A stretch of DNA of 52,087 nt from Escherichia virus TH21: the sequence record MT446395.1. One strand, written 5' to 3'. Position numbers and translations under genes: made by a program. Below, piece after piece: positions 1-52,087 of this stretch (positions within the stretch are counted from its first letter, which is position 1; every line of letters starts with the position of its first letter). The notes beneath the pieces were generated by a model. The model was not told where the DNA came from and did not search any database. It saw nothing but the letters and a program-made list of their open reading frames with translations.

Positions 1-1317
1 TATGCGGGTAATTATCACGTACGCGTAAGGAGCATATCAAGCGGTGGAAACACGTCTCCATGGTCTGATGTTGTCAGCGTTGGGTTGACTGGTAAGATTG
101 GGAAGCCAGATAAACCAACAGTAATAACCGCATCTAACGACCAGGTATTTGGGATACGGGTTAAATGGGGATTCCCTGAAGGTTCTGGCGACACTGCCTA
201 CACTGAGTTGCAGCAGATACCAGATAATGGCGCGGGAGGTCACACAGGAGAGGAGAACGCAAGCCTGTTAACAATGATCCCATACCCTCAGTACGAGTAC
301 TGGCACTCGACACTACCGGCAGGATATGTGAACTGGTACAGGGCAAGATTGGTAGACAGGATTGGTAACGCCTCTGACTGGTCTGACATTGTTCGCGGAA
401 TGGCAAGCGATGACGTTGAGTCAATAATTGGAGAAATAAAGGTTGATATCGAGAATTCCGAGGGGTTTAAGTACCTACAGCAGAACGCCATTGAGTCAAA
501 CGGAGCTATTCAGGCGCAGGCGGAATCAATTCTTGAAAACGCACTTGCAAACGACACGGACGTGCGACGAATGACCAAGGAAAACGGCAAGCGTAAGGCT
601 GAATACGTTCAGGCGGTGAATCTTATTGCTGATGAAACTCAGGCGCGCGTAGAGGCTCTCACTCAGCTTAAAGCGCAGATTGATGATGATGTCGTAGCCT
701 CCATAACTGAAGTTCAGACGGCACTAGCCACCGAAACGGAAGCAAGGACCACGGCGGATACAGCTCTGAGTTCTCAGCTTGGAGATACTCAGGCAGCGCT
801 GAATGAAAAACTTGATTCCTGGGTGGATGCAGAATCAGCTGGCGCCCAGTACGGCGTTAAGTTAGGTCTAAAATATAATGGGGTTGAATATAGCGCAGGG
901 ATGAGCATGGAACTTGTTGGCAGCGGTGCTGGTGTTAAGAGTCAGTTCATATTTGACGCTAACAGATTCGCGATCAGTAATGGGGTTGGTTCTGGTTCCG
1001 GCCAATGGTCTCTGCCTTTCGTTGTCGAGAATAGCCAAGTATTCATCCAAAGCGCGGTGATTAAGGACGGTTCAATCACTAACGCCAAGATTGGTGATGC
1101 TATACAATCCAACAACTACGTTTTCAATCAGAATGGATGGAGGATAGCGAAGGATGGTGGTGCCAACTTCAACAACGTTATAGTAAGGGGTGAGTTATAT
1201 GCTGCAGAGGGGAAATTCGCATTTAACGGAAATAATAACACGGTAGTTATTAACGGAAACGGAATTACCGTTAACTTACCTGGCGGAGGAAGGGTTGTAG
1301 TTGGAGTTTGGAGTTAA
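1..1317 (+). CDS. tail tip / host-specificity protein (lambda J-like), 3' part; same gene as 49149..52087 across the wrap-around
   Basis: ORF 85..1317 is in frame with the open frame starting at 49149 (1..872 identical to 51216..52087); beta-rich C-terminal region. Confidence 0.7.
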   Translation, partial: YAGNYHVRVRSISSGGNTSPWSDVVSVGLTGKIGKPDKPTVITASNDQVFGIRVKWGFPEGSGDTAYTELQQIPDNGAGGHTGEENASLLTMIPYPQYEYWHSTLPAGYVNWYRARLVDRIGNASDWSDIVRGMASDDVESIIGEIKVDIENSEGFKYLQQNAIESNGAIQAQAESILENALANDTDVRRMTKENGKRKAEYVQAVNLIADETQARVEALTQLKAQIDDDVVASITEVQTALATETEARTTADTALSSQLGDTQAALNEKLDSWVDAESAGAQYGVKLGLKYNGVEYSAGMSMELVGSGAGVKSQFIFDANRFAISNGVGSGSGQWSLPFVVENSQVFIQSAVIKDGSITNAKIGDAIQSNNYVFNQNGWRIAKDGGANFNNVIVRGELYAAEGKFAFNGNNNTVVINGNGITVNLPGGGRVVVGVWS

Positions 1318-1323
1318 AAATAT

Positions 1324-1346
1324 AGGCCCCTTACGGGGCCTTTTTT
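1324..1346. terminator. bidirectional intrinsic terminator between J (+) and the minus-strand gene ending at 1345
   Basis: hairpin aggcccc-ttac-ggggcct followed by T-run; A-run on other side. Confidence 0.65.
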
Positions 1347-2307
1347 AGTACATATTTGGTATATAAGGTAGCTGCATTGAGATGTTGGTGTTGAATGGGA
1401 ACTGCGCGCCAGACTGCGTTGAGTAGTTACCATAAACACTTCCTTTATGCGCCCTAACCTGACCATTTGACATTGCAACGCCCTTGTATCTAAGATTGTT
1501 GTATCCACCAGTAACCTCAACCATCGCGCCGCACCTTAGTATTGGGAAAAACCCATTACCTATTGATTGGTATGAGTTGGAAAGCTGGAGGAATCCACTT
1601 AGTACAAAAGGTCGCTTGACGCTGGAAAACACTATCTGGCCAGAGGCGTTTGACATTGTTAAACCAGGCCCTGCGGTTGGTGCTGTATTGTTGAATATAA
1701 CAAGATCGATAGTTACTGATGCTGAGACATTATCAATTCCTGTGTAGGTATTGTTTCTACATAGTATTCTTGCCCCGTCAAACTCAAGGGTGACATTTGG
1801 GTTATTCCACCTTCCAAACGGTATTCCAGTCACCGGGAGTGTATAGCTTCCATTCACAGTCACAGTTCCGACATACTGAGCAGTCAGGAGTCTACTGTTT
1901 GATGTTATTGCAGTGAAGTTAGTCGAATCACTGACAAATATCCCCTCACTGCCTAGTGATGCACCAAGAACCTCAAAACCTTGCGCACCAAATCCAATCA
2001 AATGTCCTGATGAGCCGTTAAAGTTACCTATACTTATCCTTCCAGTTGAGTTATTGACCCTGGAAAATCCATTCATGAAATAAACCTCAGGTATGAAGTC
2101 GAAGTCATAAACGTCAATAGCCTTTGTCGGCAATATGAAGGCCTCAGATCCTTGAGTCATTGTTAGTCCGAAGTCTCTAGTGCCATTGGCGGAATCAAAC
2201 GTGGAGTTACTGCTAAGGATTCCTGTTACTGCGGGCGCTCTTAAACCTGCAGTTATCTCCATTCTCGGTCTTCCGTCATTCAAGTCTATCAAGATACCCT
2301 GAGGCAT
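1345..2307 (-). CDS. hypothetical Asn/Ser/Thr/Gly-rich protein, possible receptor-binding / tail-fibre accessory protein
   Basis: ORF track 1345..2316 (GTG); ATG at 2307 has AAGGAG 9 nt upstream; TAATG overlap with upstream lipoprotein gene. Confidence 0.5.
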   Translation of the reverse strand: MPQGILIDLNDGRPRMEITAGLRAPAVTGILSSNSTFDSANGTRDFGLTMTQGSEAFILPTKAIDVYDFDFIPEVYFMNGFSRVNNSTGRISIGNFNGSSGHLIGFGAQGFEVLGASLGSEGIFVSDSTNFTAITSNSRLLTAQYVGTVTVNGSYTLPVTGIPFGRWNNPNVTLEFDGARILCRNNTYTGIDNVSASVTIDLVIFNNTAPTAGPGLTMSNASGQIVFSSVKRPFVLSGFLQLSNSYQSIGNGFFPILRCGAMVEVTGGYNNLRYKGVAMSNGQVRAHKGSVYGNYSTQSGAQFPFNTNISMQLPYIPNMY

Positions 2308-2537
2308 TATTTCCACTCCTTGGTGCCATGATCTTTAACTGATCCAGAGAAGTTTTTGATACCATCCCAGCGGATATCTGTTTCACCTGAAGCTACAACT
2401 ACACCTCCTTTCCATTTAGCAACACATGATCCGTTAACTTCAGTCGCGCACCAACCGTCAGGTCGTGGTCCGGAAGAACAACCTACAGTCATGATTACTG
2501 CTGCCGCGATTATTGCTGATTTGATGAAGTTAGTCAT
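2307..2537 (-). CDS. cor: small outer-membrane lipoprotein, Cor-like superinfection-exclusion candidate
   Basis: 76 aa; N-terminal signal peptide with lipobox (TVGC); sits beside tail genes on opposite strand as in T1/phi80-type phages. Confidence 0.5.
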
Positions 2538-2604
2538 TTTGTATTCCTTAGTGAGTGTGTTTCGTTTCGATGGAGTAACTATAGCAAAGGATGATTACGG
2601 AGTC

Positions 2605-2621
2605 TTTAGCAAATCGTGCCA
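2605..2621 (-). promoter_or_regulatory. palindromic operator-like element (variant TGGCAC-N3-TTGCTAAA) of the repeated cassette, upstream of cor
   Basis: plus strand tttagcaaatcgtgcca; followed on minus strand by TATAGT and leader ATCGAAACGAAAC then AAGGAA-ATG. Confidence 0.5.
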
Positions 2622-2995
2622 TTTGATATACATGTAACCGATGTAACTCGGTGTATACAATCTCGTCCGCGGAAAATGATATACGCGCAGTTACGCCTAG
2701 TTACGCGATAGTTACATTAAAATATCTATATATATCAACCTTCTACTATAATTATTATTATTATATATATTACTGTGTATATCGTGTAACTACTTCTATA
2801 GAGTGTTCCGCTTATAAATTTCTAATATGGTTATTTATACAGTATCTAATCACGCATACACTAATGCACCCTCCGCGAAAAATGATATACACGATATACA
2901 CGCTGTTTACATCAAGCTATGGCTGGGCCGGATAGCCATTTTATGTAACTAATGCCATTACATACACGCTATTACAAATATCTACATGTAACTAC

Positions 2996-3023
2996 TTGAC
3001 TGACGCAACCAAGCGCGTATAGT
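2996..3023 (+). promoter_or_regulatory. sigma70-type promoter (TTGACT-N16-TATAGT) for the recombination operon
   Basis: hexamers read directly at 2996..3001 and 3018..3023; ATG at 3057. Confidence 0.55.
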
Positions 3024-3056
3024 TACCCACATCAACAACGAACGAGGATTAAAGAG

Positions 3057-4097
3057 ATGACCAAGCCAATGTTTCAATACTTCACGTCAGAAGAAATGAG
3101 CAACGACTTTTACCACAGCAAAGATGAGTGGACCGCCGAGTATGTATCAGGCTCATCACTCAGCAAGATCCACAGTACTTGCCCTGCGGCGTGGAAGTTT
3201 GAAATGAACTCGACGACTAAGGCGCTGGTCTTCGGTACGCAGTCGCATACCAATTTCGAGAGTAAGGCTCTTTTTGAACGTCAATATCGCCGCGCACCGA
3301 AAGAAAGCGAGATTGAAAACGTAATCACTAGCCAGGCGACATTGGCAACGAAATTAAAATCATTTGGCCTGACTGGTACAAGCGGCAAGCAATATCCAGA
3401 GCTAATCAAAATGATGGTTGATTGTGGAGAAGATCTCAACGTCATGTGGCTGATTAATATGATCGCACAGTGTCAGGCGTGGGCCGATGGTGTGGAACTG
3501 GTTAAAGCGGAAGACTACGACGCTTGCGTAAGTATGCGACAGGTTCTTGAAATGATTCCTGAACATAATGCTTGCATGAACAGCGAAACGGCATTCCGTG
3601 AGTATTCTTTGTTCGGCGTAATTTGTGGCGTTAAAGTTAAGGTGCGACTTGACCATGTTGATATTGTTAAAGATCCAGAAGCTATCCGACGCATGGGTTA
3701 CGATCCTGAGATTCACCCTGAAATTGTCGTCATCACTGATTACAAAACGACAATGAGCGCCAACCCGACCGAGTTCCCTCGCCTGGCGTTCAACCTTGGC
3801 TATTACCTCAAGATGGCATTGCAGCGTGACCTGTTCGTTAAGTGCTTTGAAGAAACGCGACCTGTGGTTGTGCGATTGCTGGCCCAGGAGAAGAAGGAGC
3901 CTTACTTGCCTATGGCGTACCGGATGAGTAGCGATCAGCTTAAGATTGGTCGAGCGCAGTACATGAGCGTGATTCACACCTTCTCAATGTGCGAAGCCAA
4001 TGACGTATGGCCTTCATACAATAATGGCGAGCCGGAAGTAGAACTGGATACGCCTGATTGGGTAATGAAACAGTTCAATCATATCCTAGAAGCATAG
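3057..4097 (+). CDS. recombination exonuclease, PD-(D/E)xK-type
   Basis: 346 aa; D...(I)TDYK nuclease-like motif; first gene of exo-annealase-SSB triad. Confidence 0.55.
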   Translation: MTKPMFQYFTSEEMSNDFYHSKDEWTAEYVSGSSLSKIHSTCPAAWKFEMNSTTKALVFGTQSHTNFESKALFERQYRRAPKESEIENVITSQATLATKLKSFGLTGTSGKQYPELIKMMVDCGEDLNVMWLINMIAQCQAWADGVELVKAEDYDACVSMRQVLEMIPEHNACMNSETAFREYSLFGVICGVKVKVRLDHVDIVKDPEAIRRMGYDPEIHPEIVVITDYKTTMSANPTEFPRLAFNLGYYLKMALQRDLFVKCFEETRPVVVRLLAQEKKEPYLPMAYRMSSDQLKIGRAQYMSVIHTFSMCEANDVWPSYNNGEPEVELDTPDWVMKQFNHILEA

Positions 4098-4173: not shown

Positions 4174-4830
4174 ATGCGTACATCAGAGAAGTTTTCGAAT
4201 GTTTCAGCCGCTCTAATTGCAGCTAAAAAGCAGTTTGCTATCGCAAAAAAATCAGGCTTTAACACTCACCTGAAAAACCATTACTCAAACCTGACGGACG
4301 TTCTGGAGGCCGTTGAACCAGCGCTAAAAGAGCATGACCTTATGGTTATCCAGTCAAACCTGGACACGTCAACCGAAAAGGTAATGCACATTGAGACGCT
4401 CATCCTTCACAGTTCTGGCGAGTGGCTTGCGTTCCAGTACAATATGCCGATCGAGAAGATTAGCGCCCAGGCTTACGGCTCAACAACCTCATACGGTCGC
4501 CGTTACGCATTGTGCGCAGCGCTTGGAATCACTCAGAGCGATGACGACGCTGAAATCGCGAAGCGCACGGCAGCGGACTACAAAAAACTGATCACCAACT
4601 GTGAAAAACTGGAAGACCTCCAGGTGATCTATAAGAGCGCGAAAGGTTCGCTTGGCGCGGCGGAATGGAAGATTGCAGAAGACCACTTGCAGAAGCGCAA
4701 GGCTGAACTGAGTATCGGTAACGCTCGCGGTTTCCAGCCAGCGAAAAAGGCAGATACTCAAAAGGTTGAAGACAAGGTTGCAAACGCACATTCTGAACCT
4801 GTACAATCTGAATCCATCGAACAATTCTAA
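4174..4830 (+). CDS. single-strand annealing protein, Erf-like
   Basis: 218 aa; N-terminal AAKKQF...HLKNHYSNLTDVLEAV and GRRYAL motif pattern typical of Erf-family proteins. Confidence 0.55.
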   Translation: MRTSEKFSNVSAALIAAKKQFAIAKKSGFNTHLKNHYSNLTDVLEAVEPALKEHDLMVIQSNLDTSTEKVMHIETLILHSSGEWLAFQYNMPIEKISAQAYGSTTSYGRRYALCAALGITQSDDDAEIAKRTAADYKKLITNCEKLEDLQVIYKSAKGSLGAAEWKIAEDHLQKRKAELSIGNARGFQPAKKADTQKVEDKVANAHSEPVQSESIEQF

Positions 4831-5324: not shown

Positions 5325-5346
5325 AGCCCCTTTCGGGGCTTTTTTA
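5325..5346. terminator. bidirectional intrinsic terminator (SSB operon / tail-fibre gene)
   Basis: hairpin agcccc-tttc-ggggct with T-run on both strands. Confidence 0.7.
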
Positions 5347-8058
5347 TTGAATCCTACCACCACTATCACCAATCACACCAGTAAATCCAAGCAATGGCGA
5401 CGATAATCCTATTGGTGTTTGACCATTATCAAATGTGCATCCAATCATACTATCCATTATCGTTACGTTTGGTGATACCCCAGTATCCACAAAGCGACAA
5501 CCATTCCACGAAGCCCTTGGCAGGTTGCTAACTGAGCTTGATGCTGAGTTTGGAAGGGGGTAAACCCTTGTTCCGTTGAAGTTAATCCAGCAATTTTCGT
5601 TTCTACCTCCACTCGAATCCCCTAATCCAAGAAGTGTTCCACCATTAACCTCTATTGTGCAAGGTATAGATGCCCTTGCTGCGATTCCAGTGACGTTATC
5701 AAGCTTAAACCTTGGAACTACGCTTGATGAAGGGAAGGCCGCAACCTCAGTTTGAGTGTAAAGCAAATCAAAAGTTAAAGTACCTTCCCCTCCGCTCATT
5801 ATCGCCCTACCTGGTGTAAAGCCGCTGTTTATGTTTGAGATGGAGACCTCGCAGTTAAAGCCCCTGTTCTTGTTCGCTGAAGCAACTAGAGATGTGCTGT
5901 ATGATAGGTTTGTCATAACAACTGGCTCAACTTTGTTATAGCTTGTAGCATGACTAAAATTCAAGTTATCTACATTTACAACTGATGCTGGCATCGTTGA
6001 TGGGGCAACCCATAGCTTTCTGTAGTTTAACCCAGCAAGTGAGATCCAGGATTTCCTTTGTGCCGGATTGTGCAAGTGCAAAGTAACATCTCGAATAGTA
6101 ACGCTATTTGCCCATGGAACAGCAGACGTATACCCAAAGTCTGCATAGCTCTGGTCTAAAGAGCTTCCTTTAGGTATTCCAGAGTTAAAGCTAACAACAC
6201 TAATCACTGCTGGCAAAGCCTCTGTAGCGAGAGAGAATATGTTGTTTGTTGCAAGTTCAATATGTATATTGCTAACAAAAATAACTCCATCAAAGTAGTT
6301 TCCGTAATCGCCTCTGAAGTAAATAACGGAAAGCATATATATCAATGGGTTGGTTCTATCATACTGATAAAAGTCAGATAGGTAAGGTATAATCCTTGAG
6401 CAGTTAGTTACAGAGAGCCTTCCGCCACCAGTGCCCATAGTTACTCCAAATTCACTTAAAATGCAATTATCTATAGATATGTTGTATCCGTGATAGTGAA
6501 CGTCAACCCTGTTTAAAGTTGAGTTTGTAACATTTAAACCCTGTATTACATTAAATGAAATAGAACCCCACCCTTGAACGGAGTTGATGCAATCAAACTT
6601 AACATCACAGTTACCCCTACCTGAGAATACATATGTGCCATTAATAGTCTCCTGTGAGCTATTCGCCTCGGCAAAAATTCTATTGAAGTAAACCTGACTA
6701 ACGCATAAATCAAGGTAATAAACCTGCCTGATGTTAGCTAACCTTTGGTTTTGAAAATCCCTTAATGTGTGATCATTAAATACAACCTGTGACCTTGAGC
6801 ACTTGAATACAACCCCAGTAACAAACCTAGATGTGTCTATAGTTGCGTTACTTACATTTAAAATGAATGACTCGTCATCTCTTACCCTGGTACTGACATA
6901 ATTGTCATTGTTGAATGAGTGCTCAAGTGGGTATCTAAGTTCACCAAACTTCTCAATCCTGTTTATGCTTGTTTTATATTCAGTGCCTGAAGGAACTCCA
7001 CCTGAAGAACCAAGACTTGATCTGTAGCAAAAGTATTGAGATGATCCAACGGTAACTGTTTTTCTTGATAGAGATGAAAGTGAATCTATATATGTAGTCC
7101 CCTTCGTGTAATTAGCCTTATTTATCATGTTAGTAACATCAACAAGTGGATTTCCAGTGATGTTAAATGTAGGTGTGGTTAAGTATCCAGGTTCAGCGGT
7201 TGATACAGGTTTTATTACACATCCATTAAAATCAACAGATGTCTTAACCTCTATGTTTGCGTCAGCTAGCAACTGGACTTCACTAACGTTGTATAAAACA
7301 GATAGCTTGTTATCATTAGCGAATGAGTGTAAAGATCTTACCTTTTCAGTCTCATCGCCGCTACCTGTAATTCCAAAGTGTGATGAAGGAACACGCCCAT
7401 TGTTAATGTAGTTCTCAACCTCTGAAACAACACCAAGATTTTTCCTTGCTAAATCTTTATCTTGCAAGTCAGAGAAATTAAGGTCTTTACGCAGAAGATT
7501 TGATGAATCAAGTGACGCTGCGTAATCTGCTGCTTCCTGTGCTGAAGCCGCTGCTGCGTTTTTGTCTGATGATGCACTGGCTGCGCTTGCCGCTGCCGCA
7601 TTCTTATCAGCAGTTACCTGGGCTGAATCCGCTGACACTTGAGCCCCAATGGTGATAATTTCTCCATGCTGCGTGTTAATTTGGTTAACGTCATTTGAGA
7701 ATTTATCCTGATCAAAATCTTTAAAAATATCAACAGCTGTTGCAACTTCTGTTTCACGCGACTGATAGTAACGCAGAGTTTCGGCAACATCCTGAGCTAA
7801 ACCCTGAACGGTAATCCCATCGTGAGCAAGAATCGCGTAACCAGTTCCGGAAGGAACAGTTTCAGAATTAGGGTTGTAAACATTAATCTGAGTGTCGCTT
7901 ATGATTTCAGAGATGGTGTAAATCTGCACTGGCTCAGTTTTAAATACAATGGTTGCACCTACGCGAATCAGTGTAAGCGGTGCCTTCCACGTTGTCCCTA
8001 CACCAGTAACCTCGCCATTTGCGGCTAGCGACGCCGTTCCTAAGTCATAAATTGCCAT
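5344..8058 (-). CDS. tail fibre / tailspike-like protein with beta-helix-like body
   Basis: 904 aa from ATG 8058 (AGGAG 9 nt upstream); Asn/Ser/Thr/Val-rich repeats; internal DKNAAAASA duplication. Confidence 0.65.
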   Translation of the reverse strand: MAIYDLGTASLAANGEVTGVGTTWKAPLTLIRVGATIVFKTEPVQIYTISEIISDTQINVYNPNSETVPSGTGYAILAHDGITVQGLAQDVAETLRYYQSRETEVATAVDIFKDFDQDKFSNDVNQINTQHGEIITIGAQVSADSAQVTADKNAAAASAASASSDKNAAAASAQEAADYAASLDSSNLLRKDLNFSDLQDKDLARKNLGVVSEVENYINNGRVPSSHFGITGSGDETEKVRSLHSFANDNKLSVLYNVSEVQLLADANIEVKTSVDFNGCVIKPVSTAEPGYLTTPTFNITGNPLVDVTNMINKANYTKGTTYIDSLSSLSRKTVTVGSSQYFCYRSSLGSSGGVPSGTEYKTSINRIEKFGELRYPLEHSFNNDNYVSTRVRDDESFILNVSNATIDTSRFVTGVVFKCSRSQVVFNDHTLRDFQNQRLANIRQVYYLDLCVSQVYFNRIFAEANSSQETINGTYVFSGRGNCDVKFDCINSVQGWGSISFNVIQGLNVTNSTLNRVDVHYHGYNISIDNCILSEFGVTMGTGGGRLSVTNCSRIIPYLSDFYQYDRTNPLIYMLSVIYFRGDYGNYFDGVIFVSNIHIELATNNIFSLATEALPAVISVVSFNSGIPKGSSLDQSYADFGYTSAVPWANSVTIRDVTLHLHNPAQRKSWISLAGLNYRKLWVAPSTMPASVVNVDNLNFSHATSYNKVEPVVMTNLSYSTSLVASANKNRGFNCEVSISNINSGFTPGRAIMSGGEGTLTFDLLYTQTEVAAFPSSSVVPRFKLDNVTGIAARASIPCTIEVNGGTLLGLGDSSGGRNENCWINFNGTRVYPLPNSASSSVSNLPRASWNGCRFVDTGVSPNVTIMDSMIGCTFDNGQTPIGLSSPLLGFTGVIGDSGGRIQ

Positions 8059-8081
8059 AATAATCAACTCCTATATTTTTG

Positions 8082-49148: not shown

Positions 49149-52087
49149 ATGATTAAAAATAGTGTAGTGACGGGCCGAAAGGGTGGCAGCAGCAAGCCGC
49201 ATACCCCACAGGAGATGGAAGATAACCTGATCTCAATCAACAAGATTAAGGTTTTGCTCGCTGTTAGTGATGGCGAGGTTGACGCGAACTTCTCATTAAA
49301 GGACTTATATCTTAATGATGTTCCTGTAATTGCACCATCCGGCGAGGTTAACTATGAAGGCGTAACGGCTGAGTTTCGCCCTGGAACGCAGACTCAGGAT
49401 TACATCAAAGGCTTCAACGACACGGCGGCTGAGTTCACTGTAGGCCGTGAATTGAAAACAACGACGCCTTACGTGATCTCGGTAACGAATAAACAGCTAT
49501 CAGCCGTCCGCGTAAAAATCCTGATGCCTCGCGGCGTTACAACGAAAGAAAACGGCGATATGGTCGGCGTGGTCGTGAAGTGGGCAGTAGATATGGCGGT
49601 AGATGGCGGGAACTACCAGGAAGTTTTATCAGACGTCATCGACGGAAAGACCATTAGCGGATATGACAAAACAAAGCGAATCGACCTCCCAGCGTTCAAT
49701 AGTCAGGTTCTATTGCGTGTTCGACGCGTTACGGCTGATTCAACTGATGCGCGCATCGTTGATACGATAAACATCCAGTCTTATGCCGAAGTGGTTGATG
49801 CTAAATTCCGTTACCCTCTGACTGGTCTTGTTTACGTCGAGTTTAACAGCGAGCTATTCCCGCAGATCCCAAGTATTAGCACGAAAAAGAAATGGAAGCT
49901 CATTAACGTTCCGAGCAACTATAATCCAGAGCTTCGCGAGTATAACGGCACATGGGATGGCAGCTTCAAAAAAGCGTGGTCAAATAATCCGGCGTGGGTG
50001 CTTTATGATTTGATTACCAATCAGCGCTACGGACTCGACCAGCGGGAATTGGGAATCGCGGTTGATAAGTGGTCACTCTATGACGCTGGTCAATACTGCG
50101 ACCAAAAAGTGCCAGACGGTCACGGAGGAACGGAGCCTCGCTATCTTTGCGATGTGGTGATTCAGTCTCAGGTTGAAGCGTACAATCTTGTGCGAGACAT
50201 TTGCTCAATATTCCGAGGAATGAGCTTCTGGAACGGTGAGAGCCTTTCAATTGTCATCGACCGACCGAGAGAGGCGTCTTATATTTTCACTAACGATAAC
50301 GTCGTTGATGGCTCATTTGCCTATACGTTCGCAAGTGAAAAAAGCATGTACACAACCTGCAACGTCACGTTCGACGACGAGCAGAACATGTACAGCCAGG
50401 ACATTGAGGGCGTGTTCGACCTTAACGCTTCATTGCGCTTCGGCCATAACCCGACAAGCATCACGGCGATCGGATGCACTCGACGCAGTGAAGCGAATCG
50501 ACGGGGCCGCTGGGTTCTCAAAACAAACCTTCGCAGCACAACGGTGAGTTTTGCAACTGGCCTTGAGGGTATGATTCCGATGATTGGCGACGTGGTAGCA
50601 ATCGCTGATAACTTCTGGTCAAGCAATCTGACGCTTTCGTTATCAGGTCGTGTGATGGAAGTGTCAGGCCTGCAAGTGTTCACTCACTTCAAGGTTGATG
50701 CGCGCGCTGGTGATTTCATTATCGTGAACAAGGCTGACGGAAATCCGGTGCGCCGGACGATTTCAAAAGTGTCTGCGGACGGGAAAACCATTGAGCTTAA
50801 CGTTGGATTCGGCTTTGATGTTCAACCCAACACAGTGTTCGCAATCGACCGCACTGATGTGGCCTTGCAGCAATACGTTGTAACCGGAATCACGAAGGGA
50901 GACGGCGACGATGAGTTCACGTACAGCATTACGGCAGTTGAATACGATCCGAACAAATACGACGAGATTGACTACGGCGTAAATATTGATGACCGACCAA
51001 CCAGTATTGTAGATCCTGACAACATGCAGCCACCAAAAAACATTGTTGTTTCATCATACTCTCGAATTGTGCAGGGGATGAGCGTTGAGACAATGGTGAT
51101 AGGGTGGGATAAAGTTCAGTACGCGAGCAAGTACGACGTGCAGTGGAGAAAGGATAACGGTAACTGGATGAACGTACCGCGTACAGCAAGCTCAGAGGTT
51201 GAGGTTGAAGGGATTTATGCGGGTAATTATCACGTACGCGTAAGGAGCATATCAAGCGGTGGAAACACGTCTCCATGGTCTGATGTTGTCAGCGTTGGGT
51301 TGACTGGTAAGATTGGGAAGCCAGATAAACCAACAGTAATAACCGCATCTAACGACCAGGTATTTGGGATACGGGTTAAATGGGGATTCCCTGAAGGTTC
51401 TGGCGACACTGCCTACACTGAGTTGCAGCAGATACCAGATAATGGCGCGGGAGGTCACACAGGAGAGGAGAACGCAAGCCTGTTAACAATGATCCCATAC
51501 CCTCAGTACGAGTACTGGCACTCGACACTACCGGCAGGATATGTGAACTGGTACAGGGCAAGATTGGTAGACAGGATTGGTAACGCCTCTGACTGGTCTG
51601 ACATTGTTCGCGGAATGGCAAGCGATGACGTTGAGTCAATAATTGGAGAAATAAAGGTTGATATCGAGAATTCCGAGGGGTTTAAGTACCTACAGCAGAA
51701 CGCCATTGAGTCAAACGGAGCTATTCAGGCGCAGGCGGAATCAATTCTTGAAAACGCACTTGCAAACGACACGGACGTGCGACGAATGACCAAGGAAAAC
51801 GGCAAGCGTAAGGCTGAATACGTTCAGGCGGTGAATCTTATTGCTGATGAAACTCAGGCGCGCGTAGAGGCTCTCACTCAGCTTAAAGCGCAGATTGATG
51901 ATGATGTCGTAGCCTCCATAACTGAAGTTCAGACGGCACTAGCCACCGAAACGGAAGCAAGGACCACGGCGGATACAGCTCTGAGTTCTCAGCTTGGAGA
52001 TACTCAGGCAGCGCTGAATGAAAAACTTGATTCCTGGGTGGATGCAGAATCAGCTGGCGCCCAGTACGGCGTTAAGTTAGGTCTAAA
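49149..52087 (+). CDS. tail tip / host-specificity protein (lambda J-like), 5' part; runs off the window end and continues at 873..1317
   Basis: open frame from ATG 49149 with no stop to 52087; in frame with ORF 85..1317 through the 872-bp repeat; full length about 1127 aa. Confidence 0.75.
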   Translation, partial: MIKNSVVTGRKGGSSKPHTPQEMEDNLISINKIKVLLAVSDGEVDANFSLKDLYLNDVPVIAPSGEVNYEGVTAEFRPGTQTQDYIKGFNDTAAEFTVGRELKTTTPYVISVTNKQLSAVRVKILMPRGVTTKENGDMVGVVVKWAVDMAVDGGNYQEVLSDVIDGKTISGYDKTKRIDLPAFNSQVLLRVRRVTADSTDARIVDTINIQSYAEVVDAKFRYPLTGLVYVEFNSELFPQIPSISTKKKWKLINVPSNYNPELREYNGTWDGSFKKAWSNNPAWVLYDLITNQRYGLDQRELGIAVDKWSLYDAGQYCDQKVPDGHGGTEPRYLCDVVIQSQVEAYNLVRDICSIFRGMSFWNGESLSIVIDRPREASYIFTNDNVVDGSFAYTFASEKSMYTTCNVTFDDEQNMYSQDIEGVFDLNASLRFGHNPTSITAIGCTRRSEANRRGRWVLKTNLRSTTVSFATGLEGMIPMIGDVVAIADNFWSSNLTLSLSGRVMEVSGLQVFTHFKVDARAGDFIIVNKADGNPVRRTISKVSADGKTIELNVGFGFDVQPNTVFAIDRTDVALQQYVVTGITKGDGDDEFTYSITAVEYDPNKYDEIDYGVNIDDRPTSIVDPDNMQPPKNIVVSSYSRIVQGMSVETMVIGWDKVQYASKYDVQWRKDNGNWMNVPRTASSEVEVEGIYAGNYHVRVRSISSGGNTSPWSDVVSVGLTGKIGKPDKPTVITASNDQVFGIRVKWGFPEGSGDTAYTELQQIPDNGAGGHTGEENASLLTMIPYPQYEYWHSTLPAGYVNWYRARLVDRIGNASDWSDIVRGMASDDVESIIGEIKVDIENSEGFKYLQQNAIESNGAIQAQAESILENALANDTDVRRMTKENGKRKAEYVQAVNLIADETQARVEALTQLKAQIDDDVVASITEVQTALATETEARTTADTALSSQLGDTQAALNEKLDSWVDAESAGAQYGVKLGL

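Follow-up and report, generated by a model that had tools for sequence, protein, structure and literature searches.

Escherichia virus TH21 (sequence record MT446395.1) was analysed as a single stretch of 52,087 nucleotides, referred to here as the window, in which two minus-strand genes lie between the end of the J gene of the central tail fibre and a group of recombination genes. The first of these genes encodes a lipoprotein of 76 residues and the second a protein of 320 residues. With a probability of about 0.88, the pair forms the terminal-receptor cassette with which a T1/Rtp-like siphovirus recognises its receptor, the lipopolysaccharide (LPS) translocon LptDE. What was observed in the present analysis is the structure of the genes, their family membership, the fold, the synteny and the way in which the J tip covaries; binding to LptDE and the steric mechanism of receptor blocking are carried over by analogy from published homologues, and LptD use by this allele, exclusion in vivo, and the promoter of the operon with its timing are put forward as predictions. 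The cassette itself was already known: near-identical genes are present in GenBank, and the system of which it is an unexceptional member was worked out by genetics in 2021 and by structure determination in 2025. The region is 91% identical at the nucleotide level to Escherichia phage CJ19 (Drexlerviridae, Nouzillyvirus) and also aligns with rtp43-rtp46 of phage Rtp, showing the window to be that of a Nouzillyvirus-like T1/Rtp-like siphovirus. The hosts of its close relatives are E. coli.

Judged by its sequence, the 320-residue protein is a DUF6453 receptor-binding protein (RBP) of the LptD-targeting type, and the use of LptD by this allele would be expected from its relatives. It matches the DUF6453 profile (PF20051) with 464.9 bits (E=1.3e-139) and, over residues 2-320, the RBP of phage Oekolampad in the PDB (9rpt_C, E=1.5e-69; also 9rpw and 9rqi). 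A 2026 preprint describes four unrelated RBP families at the gpJ locus (FhuA, BtuB, LptD and YncD), each at >30% identity and >99% coverage; the window RBP is 43% identical to Rtp44 across 320/320 residues and thus falls within the LptD family. An AlphaFold2 model built on an alignment of 36 sequences (predicted local distance difference test score 84.7, predicted template modelling score 0.85) is an all-beta sandwich. Foldseek searches of the PDB with this model returned 9rpt_C as the match (E=4.2e-22, target-normalised TM score 0.91, root-mean-square deviation 2.7 Å), with none beyond it below E=0.01. With the RBPs of Oekolampad (Bas18; PDB 9RPT, 9RPW, 9RQI), Rtp (Rtp44) and AugustePiccard it shares full-length homology, the fold and the position of its gene beside J, and conservation extends to the first 25 residues and to the LPxxPNMY motif at the C-terminus of the Oekolampad/Rtp44-type proteins. 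Gln299 of the Oekolampad RBP, which bonds with LptD Ser350, aligns with a Gln in the window protein. Closer relatives are found in CJ19 (98.8% identical) and IME542 (96%), and the RBPs of the Rogue1/AHP42 type, near-identical to each other, are 67% identical to that of the window. A sequence-only reading of this DNA, made without database searches, had suggested that the partner of the lipoprotein might be either a receptor-binding or an exclusion factor; the first of these alternatives is borne out by the DUF6453 match and the 9rpt_C fold.

The 76-residue protein is, again on sequence grounds, an outer-membrane lipoprotein of the superinfection-exclusion type belonging to the Rtp45 family, and its role in receptor blocking is predicted from Rtp45. 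Its residues 1-75 cover positions 1-80 of the 80 positions of PF24052 ('Phage lipoprotein family') with 121.7 bits against a cut-off of 27 (E=1.3e-35), and a sequence search of the PDB identified chain D of 9rps (E=2.1e-35). Identity to Rtp45 of phage Rtp (UniProt Q333D9; PDB 9RPS) is 73% over 75 residues without gaps. The protein possesses a signal peptide and a lipobox (MTVG/C), with Cys20 as the predicted lipidated residue and the first of the mature protein, which begins CSSG; Ser at position +2 (non-Asp) predicts sorting to the outer membrane. Cys30 and Cys38 occupy the positions of the disulfide pair of Rtp45. In mature numbering, C1, C11 and C19 are invariant in seven diverse family members, among them a Dhillonvirus protein of 36-39% identity. 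The mature protein is 72-79% identical to those of Rtp and P818, with the cysteines kept, and IME542 (locus L005) encodes a lipoprotein 100% identical to that of the window. Like Rtp45, the window protein consists of 76 residues with the lipobox at the same position and Cys20, Cys30 and Cys38 retained, and its gene is placed likewise, overlapping the RBP gene downstream in the same way. It differs from Rtp45 by 18-20 substitutions clustered at residues 33-37, 49-50 and 61-72, those at 33-37 (EVNGS versus QASGV) lying in or beside the strand that pairs with LptD 318-323, and also in being partnered by an RBP only 43% identical to Rtp44.

Both open reading frames (ORFs) were found where the sequence-only reading had placed a minus-strand lipoprotein of 76 residues (lipobox TVGC) followed by an Asn/Ser/Thr/Gly-rich protein of 320 residues, and their coding status is beyond doubt given the Pfam matches of the lipoprotein (E=1.3e-35) and of the RBP (E=1.3e-139). 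Its description of the pair as wedged between the end of J and the recombination operon is likewise correct: J ends at 1317, and genes for exonuclease VIII, Erf and an SSB-like protein lie on the far side. The TAA stop codon of the lipoprotein gene and the ATG start codon of the RBP gene overlap by one base (TAATG at 2307), which suggests that the two are translationally coupled. Good Shine-Dalgarno sequences were identified for both, AAGGA 7 nt upstream of the ATG of the lipoprotein gene and AAGGAG 8 nt upstream of that of the RBP gene; an alternative GTG start at 2316 would give an RBP of 323 residues. The RBP is composed of 11.9% Gly, 10.0% Ser, 9.1% Asn and 8.1% Thr (39.1% in sum), with charged residues accounting for only 11.2% of its 320 positions. 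Neither a signal peptide nor a hydrophobic segment was seen in its sequence and model.

Maffei et al. (2021, PMC8594841) showed that in Drexlerviridae, Dhillonvirus and Queuovirinae phages the terminal receptor can be predicted from allelic RBP loci beside or downstream of gpJ, the Rtp-type allele corresponding to LptD. Structures of both components are available from Dunbar et al. (PNAS 2025, PMC12685063). In 9RPT, the RBP of Oekolampad enters the open translocon from outside; the protein had been purified in soluble form, and cryo-EM showed it on the extracellular side of LptDE. In 9RPS, also obtained by cryo-EM, Rtp45 occupies a site on the periplasmic face of LptD flanked by LptE and LptM. 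A disulfide links its Cys30 and Cys38, and its hairpin rises through the barrel lumen and moves the extracellular loop EL4 by up to 20 Å, so that RBP binding is blocked. The same authors report that AlphaFold3 predicts Rtp45 and the complex wrongly. As Rtp45 directly contacts LptD, LptE and LptM, the lipoprotein of the window serves as a marker of receptor identity independent of the RBP, and it favours LptD.

If the window proteins act as their homologues do, the RBP would be a monomeric, all-beta protein whose conserved N-terminal/base region makes a non-covalent attachment to the J-like fibre at its tip, and its distal loops would enter the lumen of open-state LptD from outside, committing the phage to DNA injection. 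After export and lipidation at Cys20, the lipoprotein would be directed to the outer membrane, in whose inner leaflet it would bind LptD from the periplasm at a site flanked by LptE and LptM. Its beta-hairpin would then push up the barrel and displace EL4, preventing the RBP from docking. LptD blocked in this manner would exclude superinfecting LptD-dependent phages and may also save progeny from being lost on receptor present in cell debris. Both proteins would be made from one translationally coupled operon, convergent on J and ending at a bidirectional terminator common to both transcription units, and this operon would be read from a conserved control region of the phage backbone that is shared divergently with the recombination genes.

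Further evidence comes from the tip of J, the motif of which (…FAFNG.NNTV.INGNGITVNLPGGGRVVVG…) is common to every compared J protein encoded beside a DUF6453 gene. It is kept in a Dhillonvirus and in a phage of prophage type although the preceding 325 residues of their J proteins are only 27-31% identical. Phages Bas03 (JulesPiccard; FhuA/Cor-type) and T1 share a different, T1-type tip, and the preceding part of the Bas03 J is 72% identical. On the side of the RBP, residues 1-25 (window 2233-2307) are the most conserved part of the protein, at 84-92% identity in most relatives, whose RBPs are 45-74% identical overall, and at 64-72% in Rtp and P818. As the J tip varies together with the RBP family and not with the rest of J, and the N-terminus of the RBP is conserved, the two look like a docking interface; at the level of sequence, these observations fit the J tip and the base of the RBP being in conserved contact.

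Loci with a DUF6453 RBP were located by tblastn and show two architectures. In the first (type A), J, the terminator, the RBP gene and the lipoprotein gene occur in this order with the stop/start overlap, as in Rtp, ETEP102, AHP42, CJ19, 50EP, P818, eight IMG/VR loci and one Dhillonvirus. The lipoprotein gene lies directly upstream of, and coupled to, the DUF6453 gene beside J in 11 of 11 type-A loci, as it does in CJ19, 50EP, P818 and the Dhillonvirus. In the second architecture, the RBP gene follows J in the same direction, with the J stop codon abutting the RBP start; this arrangement was found in 72 prophage-like IMG/VR loci (L011, L014-L084), of which Salmonella phage Oslo is an example, and in the Klebsiella Webervirus TAH8 (L086). 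No Rtp45-type lipoprotein was detected in the co-directional loci by tblastn at E<=1e-3, nor in the ORF listings of two of them, and a scan for lipobox-containing ORFs within 1.5 kb of these loci gave one unrelated short ORF (L039), taken to be a chance hit. The two architectures indicate that transcription opposite to the tail genes goes with the form of the cassette that bears the lipoprotein, and the many DUF6453 loci without a detectable lipoprotein show that the RBP does not require one.

DUF6453 proteins 43-50% identical to the window RBP (P0025-P0052 and P0078) also occur on chromosomal contigs of Citrobacter, Salmonella and E. coli and in one E. coli plasmid record, pointing to temperate carriers of this RBP family in several enterobacterial genera.

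Several points weigh against an LptDE-directed cassette. The RBP of the window is only about 45% identical to the structurally characterised Oekolampad protein, from which it is strongly diverged at residues 26-120, the most variable region. The RBP of IME542, at 96% identity to that of the window, belongs to a phage listed only as a 'predicted' LptD phage (Black et al. 2025, PMC13035648). No in vivo exclusion assay for Rtp45 was found in the structural paper (PMC12685063), where exclusion is a structural inference. An exclusion gene, expected to be expressed early, is here coupled to the gene of a virion protein, which is required late, and the model does not account for this timing. Finally, the DUF6453 loci in which no lipoprotein was detectable are many (the 72 of prophage type and the Klebsiella Webervirus).

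The alternative that survives best accepts the Rtp44/Rtp45-family cassette and proposes that this RBP allele, in diverging, has come to bind a different outer-membrane receptor, or LptD at another surface or in another state. It draws on the low identity to Rtp44 and the Oekolampad RBP (43-45%), which falls to 20-26% over residues 26-75 in comparisons with the RBPs of Rtp, P818 and the Dhillonvirus, and on the work of Black et al. (PMC13035648), in which the conserved residues of these RBPs map to the base and not to the receptor-binding tip and three groups, possibly with different binding modes, are proposed. The lipoprotein argues otherwise: its mature part is 72-79% identical to those of Rtp and P818, and Rtp45 contacts LptD, LptE and LptM in the solved complex, so that a switch of receptor would make an exclusion lipoprotein of this kind useless. 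Moreover, every tested member of the family uses LptD. Phage OzMSK is experimentally LptD-dependent with an RBP only 39% identical to that of Rtp, and its RBP model is nearly superimposable on that of Rogue1 (PMC13035648); the Rogue1-type RBP, with which the window protein shares 67% identity, groups with this LptD-dependent phage. A change of receptor is thus considered improbable.

Still less probable is that the 320-residue protein is a host-directed membrane protein or moron, forming a two-part exclusion system with the lipoprotein and taking no part in the virion. PHROG 1265 labels the family 'membrane protein; moron, auxiliary metabolic gene and host takeover', RefSeq homologues carry the name 'membrane protein', and the gene is co-transcribed with an exclusion gene against the tail operon. 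These labels conflict with the solved structure, in which the homologue is a soluble tail-tip receptor-binding protein seen on the extracellular face of LptDE, and the window protein, with its all-beta sandwich model, has neither signal peptide nor hydrophobic segment. In addition, the gene stands directly after J and co-directional with it, inside the tail operon, in the 72 prophage-type loci and in the Webervirus, and the J tip covaries with the protein.

From position and size, the sequence-only reading had proposed that the lipoprotein is a superinfection-exclusion protein of the Cor type that blocks the phage receptor. Membership of the Rtp45 family upholds the functional class; the assignment to the Cor family does not stand, and the predicted target is LptD(E), not FhuA. 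A Cor protein blocking FhuA, as in T1, phi80, N15 and HK022, would have the same size (75-76 residues) and a similar signal peptide and lipobox, and cor occupies the same slot in T1 and Bas03, where it follows the J-linked genes on the opposite strand and lies upstream of recE/erf. T1 Cor also gives a match to PF24052, albeit at 17.7 bits against the cut-off of 27 (Pfam at E<=10). Homology to Cor had been set beforehand as one part of the test of this proposal, and it was rejected in four comparisons. The NCBIfam model for Cor (NF047972) gave no match to the lipoprotein at E<=0.1, compared with 55.8 bits for T1 Cor itself (cut-off 31); pairwise BLAST with T1 Cor aligned only residues 9-25, that is, the signal peptide and lipobox; Pfam placed T1 Cor below the cut-off of the PF24052 family; and profile-profile alignment of the mature parts with hhalign gave a probability of 0.9%. 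The two co-directional companions of cor (T1 ST32/ST31) have no counterpart at the locus, no blastn match to T1 was found in 1345-2537, DUF6453, which fills that stretch, was not found by Pfam in T1 ST31 or ST32, and the J tip of the window is of the DUF6453 type and not of the FhuA type. Refuted at the family level, the Cor reading is therefore hardly credible.

The likeness to Cor and Llp is functional and positional and not one of homology, as all homology tests fail. Cor is likewise a small outer-membrane lipoprotein encoded in the same slot opposite J, with an analogous role in blocking the phage's own receptor, and the Cor-type gene of Bas03 lies downstream of the same conserved control region; it differs in having no detectable homology in the mature protein, in acting on FhuA, in being predicted to share the Llp fold, and in having two co-directional companion genes instead of a coupled DUF6453 gene. 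Homology to Llp was rejected, as a sequence search of the PDB at E<=1 gave only 9rps_D and chance matches. The llp and pb5 genes of phage T5 lie side by side and are not known to be translationally coupled. T5 too has a dedicated monomeric RBP, pb5, on a straight central fibre, and a lipoprotein on the periplasmic side stops this RBP from binding its receptor FhuA (PDB 8A60, 8A8C). Llp acts by long-range allostery through the plug and loops of FhuA, whereas Rtp45 physically pushes a loop (PMC12685063).

For a cassette directed at LptDE, the terminal receptor of the phage becomes predictable as LptD, an essential conserved protein, and this bears on host-range prediction and phage steering. It is also relevant to resistant production strains, for which deletion of loop 11 of LptD has already been used. 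The labels 'membrane protein', 'hypothetical protein' and 'Cor-like' are corrected. No biology is added beyond the work of 2021-2025 on Rtp, the BASEL phages and Oekolampad; somewhat fresher leads are offered by the well-conserved control region, by the association of the lipoprotein with the orientation of the genes, and by the cassette's mosaic origin.

This mosaic origin is apparent from the different affinities of the two genes. The lipoprotein is closest to the short form of Rtp (L001) and P818 (L089), which lacks a GGGYG insertion, yet the RBPs of these phages are only 43% identical to that of the window. The RBP is closest to the ETEP102 (L003)/Rogue1 form, with 67-74% identity to the proteins of AHP42 (L004) and ETEP102, whose lipoproteins carry a GGGYG-type insertion of 4-5 residues absent from the window lipoprotein. 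These affinities suggest recombination inside the cassette near the junction of its two genes. The coordinates of the cassette and its surroundings are given in Table 1.

Table 1. Features of the receptor cassette and adjoining regions of the window
Feature	Position	Strand	Remarks
J-like central tail fibre gene, 3' part	1..1317	plus	PF09327, E=1.2e-40; PHROG 31
J tip, last ~40 residues (...LYAAEGKFAFNGNNNTVVINGNGITVNLPGGGRVVVGVWS)	1195..1317	plus	putative docking site for the separate RBP
Bidirectional intrinsic terminator	1324..1341	both	AGGCCCC-TTAC-GGGGCCT; perfect hairpin flanked by A/T runs; found by a scan on both strands
DUF6453 RBP gene, Rtp44/RBP-Oekolampad family	2307..1345	minus	320 aa; PF20051
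Rtp45-family exclusion lipoprotein gene	2537..2307	minus	76 aa; PF24052
Conserved non-coding control region, ~290 bp	2601..2893		within the 519-bp intergenic region 2538-3056
Candidate sigma-70 promoter, lipoprotein-RBP operon	2781..2754	minus	TATACA-16-AATAAT; weak consensus match, 9/12
Promoter-like site, divergent, exonuclease/Erf/SSB operon	2996..3023	plus	TTGACT-16-TATAGT; 10/12 match
Exonuclease VIII gene	3057-4097	plus	
Erf gene	4174-4830	plus	SSB-like gene next on the plus strand

The intergenic region upstream of the lipoprotein gene has a GC content of 36%, compared with 47% for the window, and contains a stretch that is better conserved than the cassette itself: identity to Rtp is 84-93% at the nucleotide level over 2601-2800, compared with 71% for the lipoprotein gene, 58% for the RBP gene and 70% for the 3' end of J. 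The control region is present in 134 phage records of the clade and was not found in T1 by blastn. As it precedes the Cor-type gene in Bas03, it belongs to the phage backbone and not to the cassette. Seven of the 15 copies of GTAACTA in the window (3.5 expected in the whole of it) fall within 2538-3056, and the motif is enriched only locally. Phased repeats were also identified, three GTTAC (2690, 2700 and 2711, at a spacing of 10-11 bp) facing two GTAAC (2634 and 2643), with further copies of GTAAC/GTTAC at 2575, 2786, 2945, 2988 and 3020, together with a 22-nt direct repeat (2666-2687 and 2872-2893, 206 bp apart) and imperfect palindromes at 2708-2755 and 2975-2998. The pair had been described as driven by a palindrome cassette: palindromes and repeats are indeed present, and the part of the claim that concerns transcription is less well served, the match of the minus-strand promoter to the consensus being weak. 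This candidate promoter, which would give a leader of about 210-221 nt, coincides with an annotated minus-strand promoter of ETEP102 lying 217-244 nt upstream of its lipoprotein start, and ETEP102 also has an annotated promoter at the position equivalent to the divergent site.

The 10 conserved inverted repeats of the Rtp genome have reportedly been proposed as sites of the regulator Rtp52. In the window, neither the 22-nt repeat nor TGTAACTA nor the short palindromes recurred outside 2538-3056, and a genome-wide operator set was rejected on this ground and on that of the local GTAACTA enrichment. A riboswitch or other structured RNA, whether in the leader or between the genes, was rejected as well: the best Rfam match (E=0.075) scored 24 bits where the gathering score is 50 and did not rise above noise, and the predicted fold of the putative 221-nt leader is not unusual (z=-0.25). 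The control region may serve as an array of operators, as an origin, or as an arm for recombination.

Tentatively, and as a possibility short of an even chance, the control region, the conserved J tip and the terminator may be the fixed arms of a slot in which RBP/exclusion cassettes are exchanged, the cassette of the window combining a lipoprotein of the Rtp/P818 type with an RBP of the Rogue1/ETEP102 type. If this is true, every incoming exclusion gene, whether of the Cor or of the Rtp45 type, would come under one dedicated phage regulator, and a single lipoprotein would cross-exclude phages with very different LptD RBP alleles.

The terminator sits between the convergent stop codons of J and the RBP gene, which are 27 nt apart, and is common to both transcripts; annotated terminators are carried at the equivalent place by ETEP102 and AHP42. 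Bases 1-872 of the window are identical to 51216-52087, from which it follows that the window represents a circular assembly, 51,215 bp in length, with its first 872 bases repeated at the end. Reconstruction of the ORF across this 872-bp overlap gives a complete J gene of 1127 aa, starting near 49149 and running to 1317.

A lateral tail fibre or tailspike of 907 residues is encoded at 5344-8067 on the minus strand. Its N-terminal ~180 residues match anchors of T1-like fibres (PHROG 24092 and others), and no Pfam family was found for the remaining ~700 residues. This distal part is probably a glycan-specific module (O-antigen or capsule) for the primary receptor.

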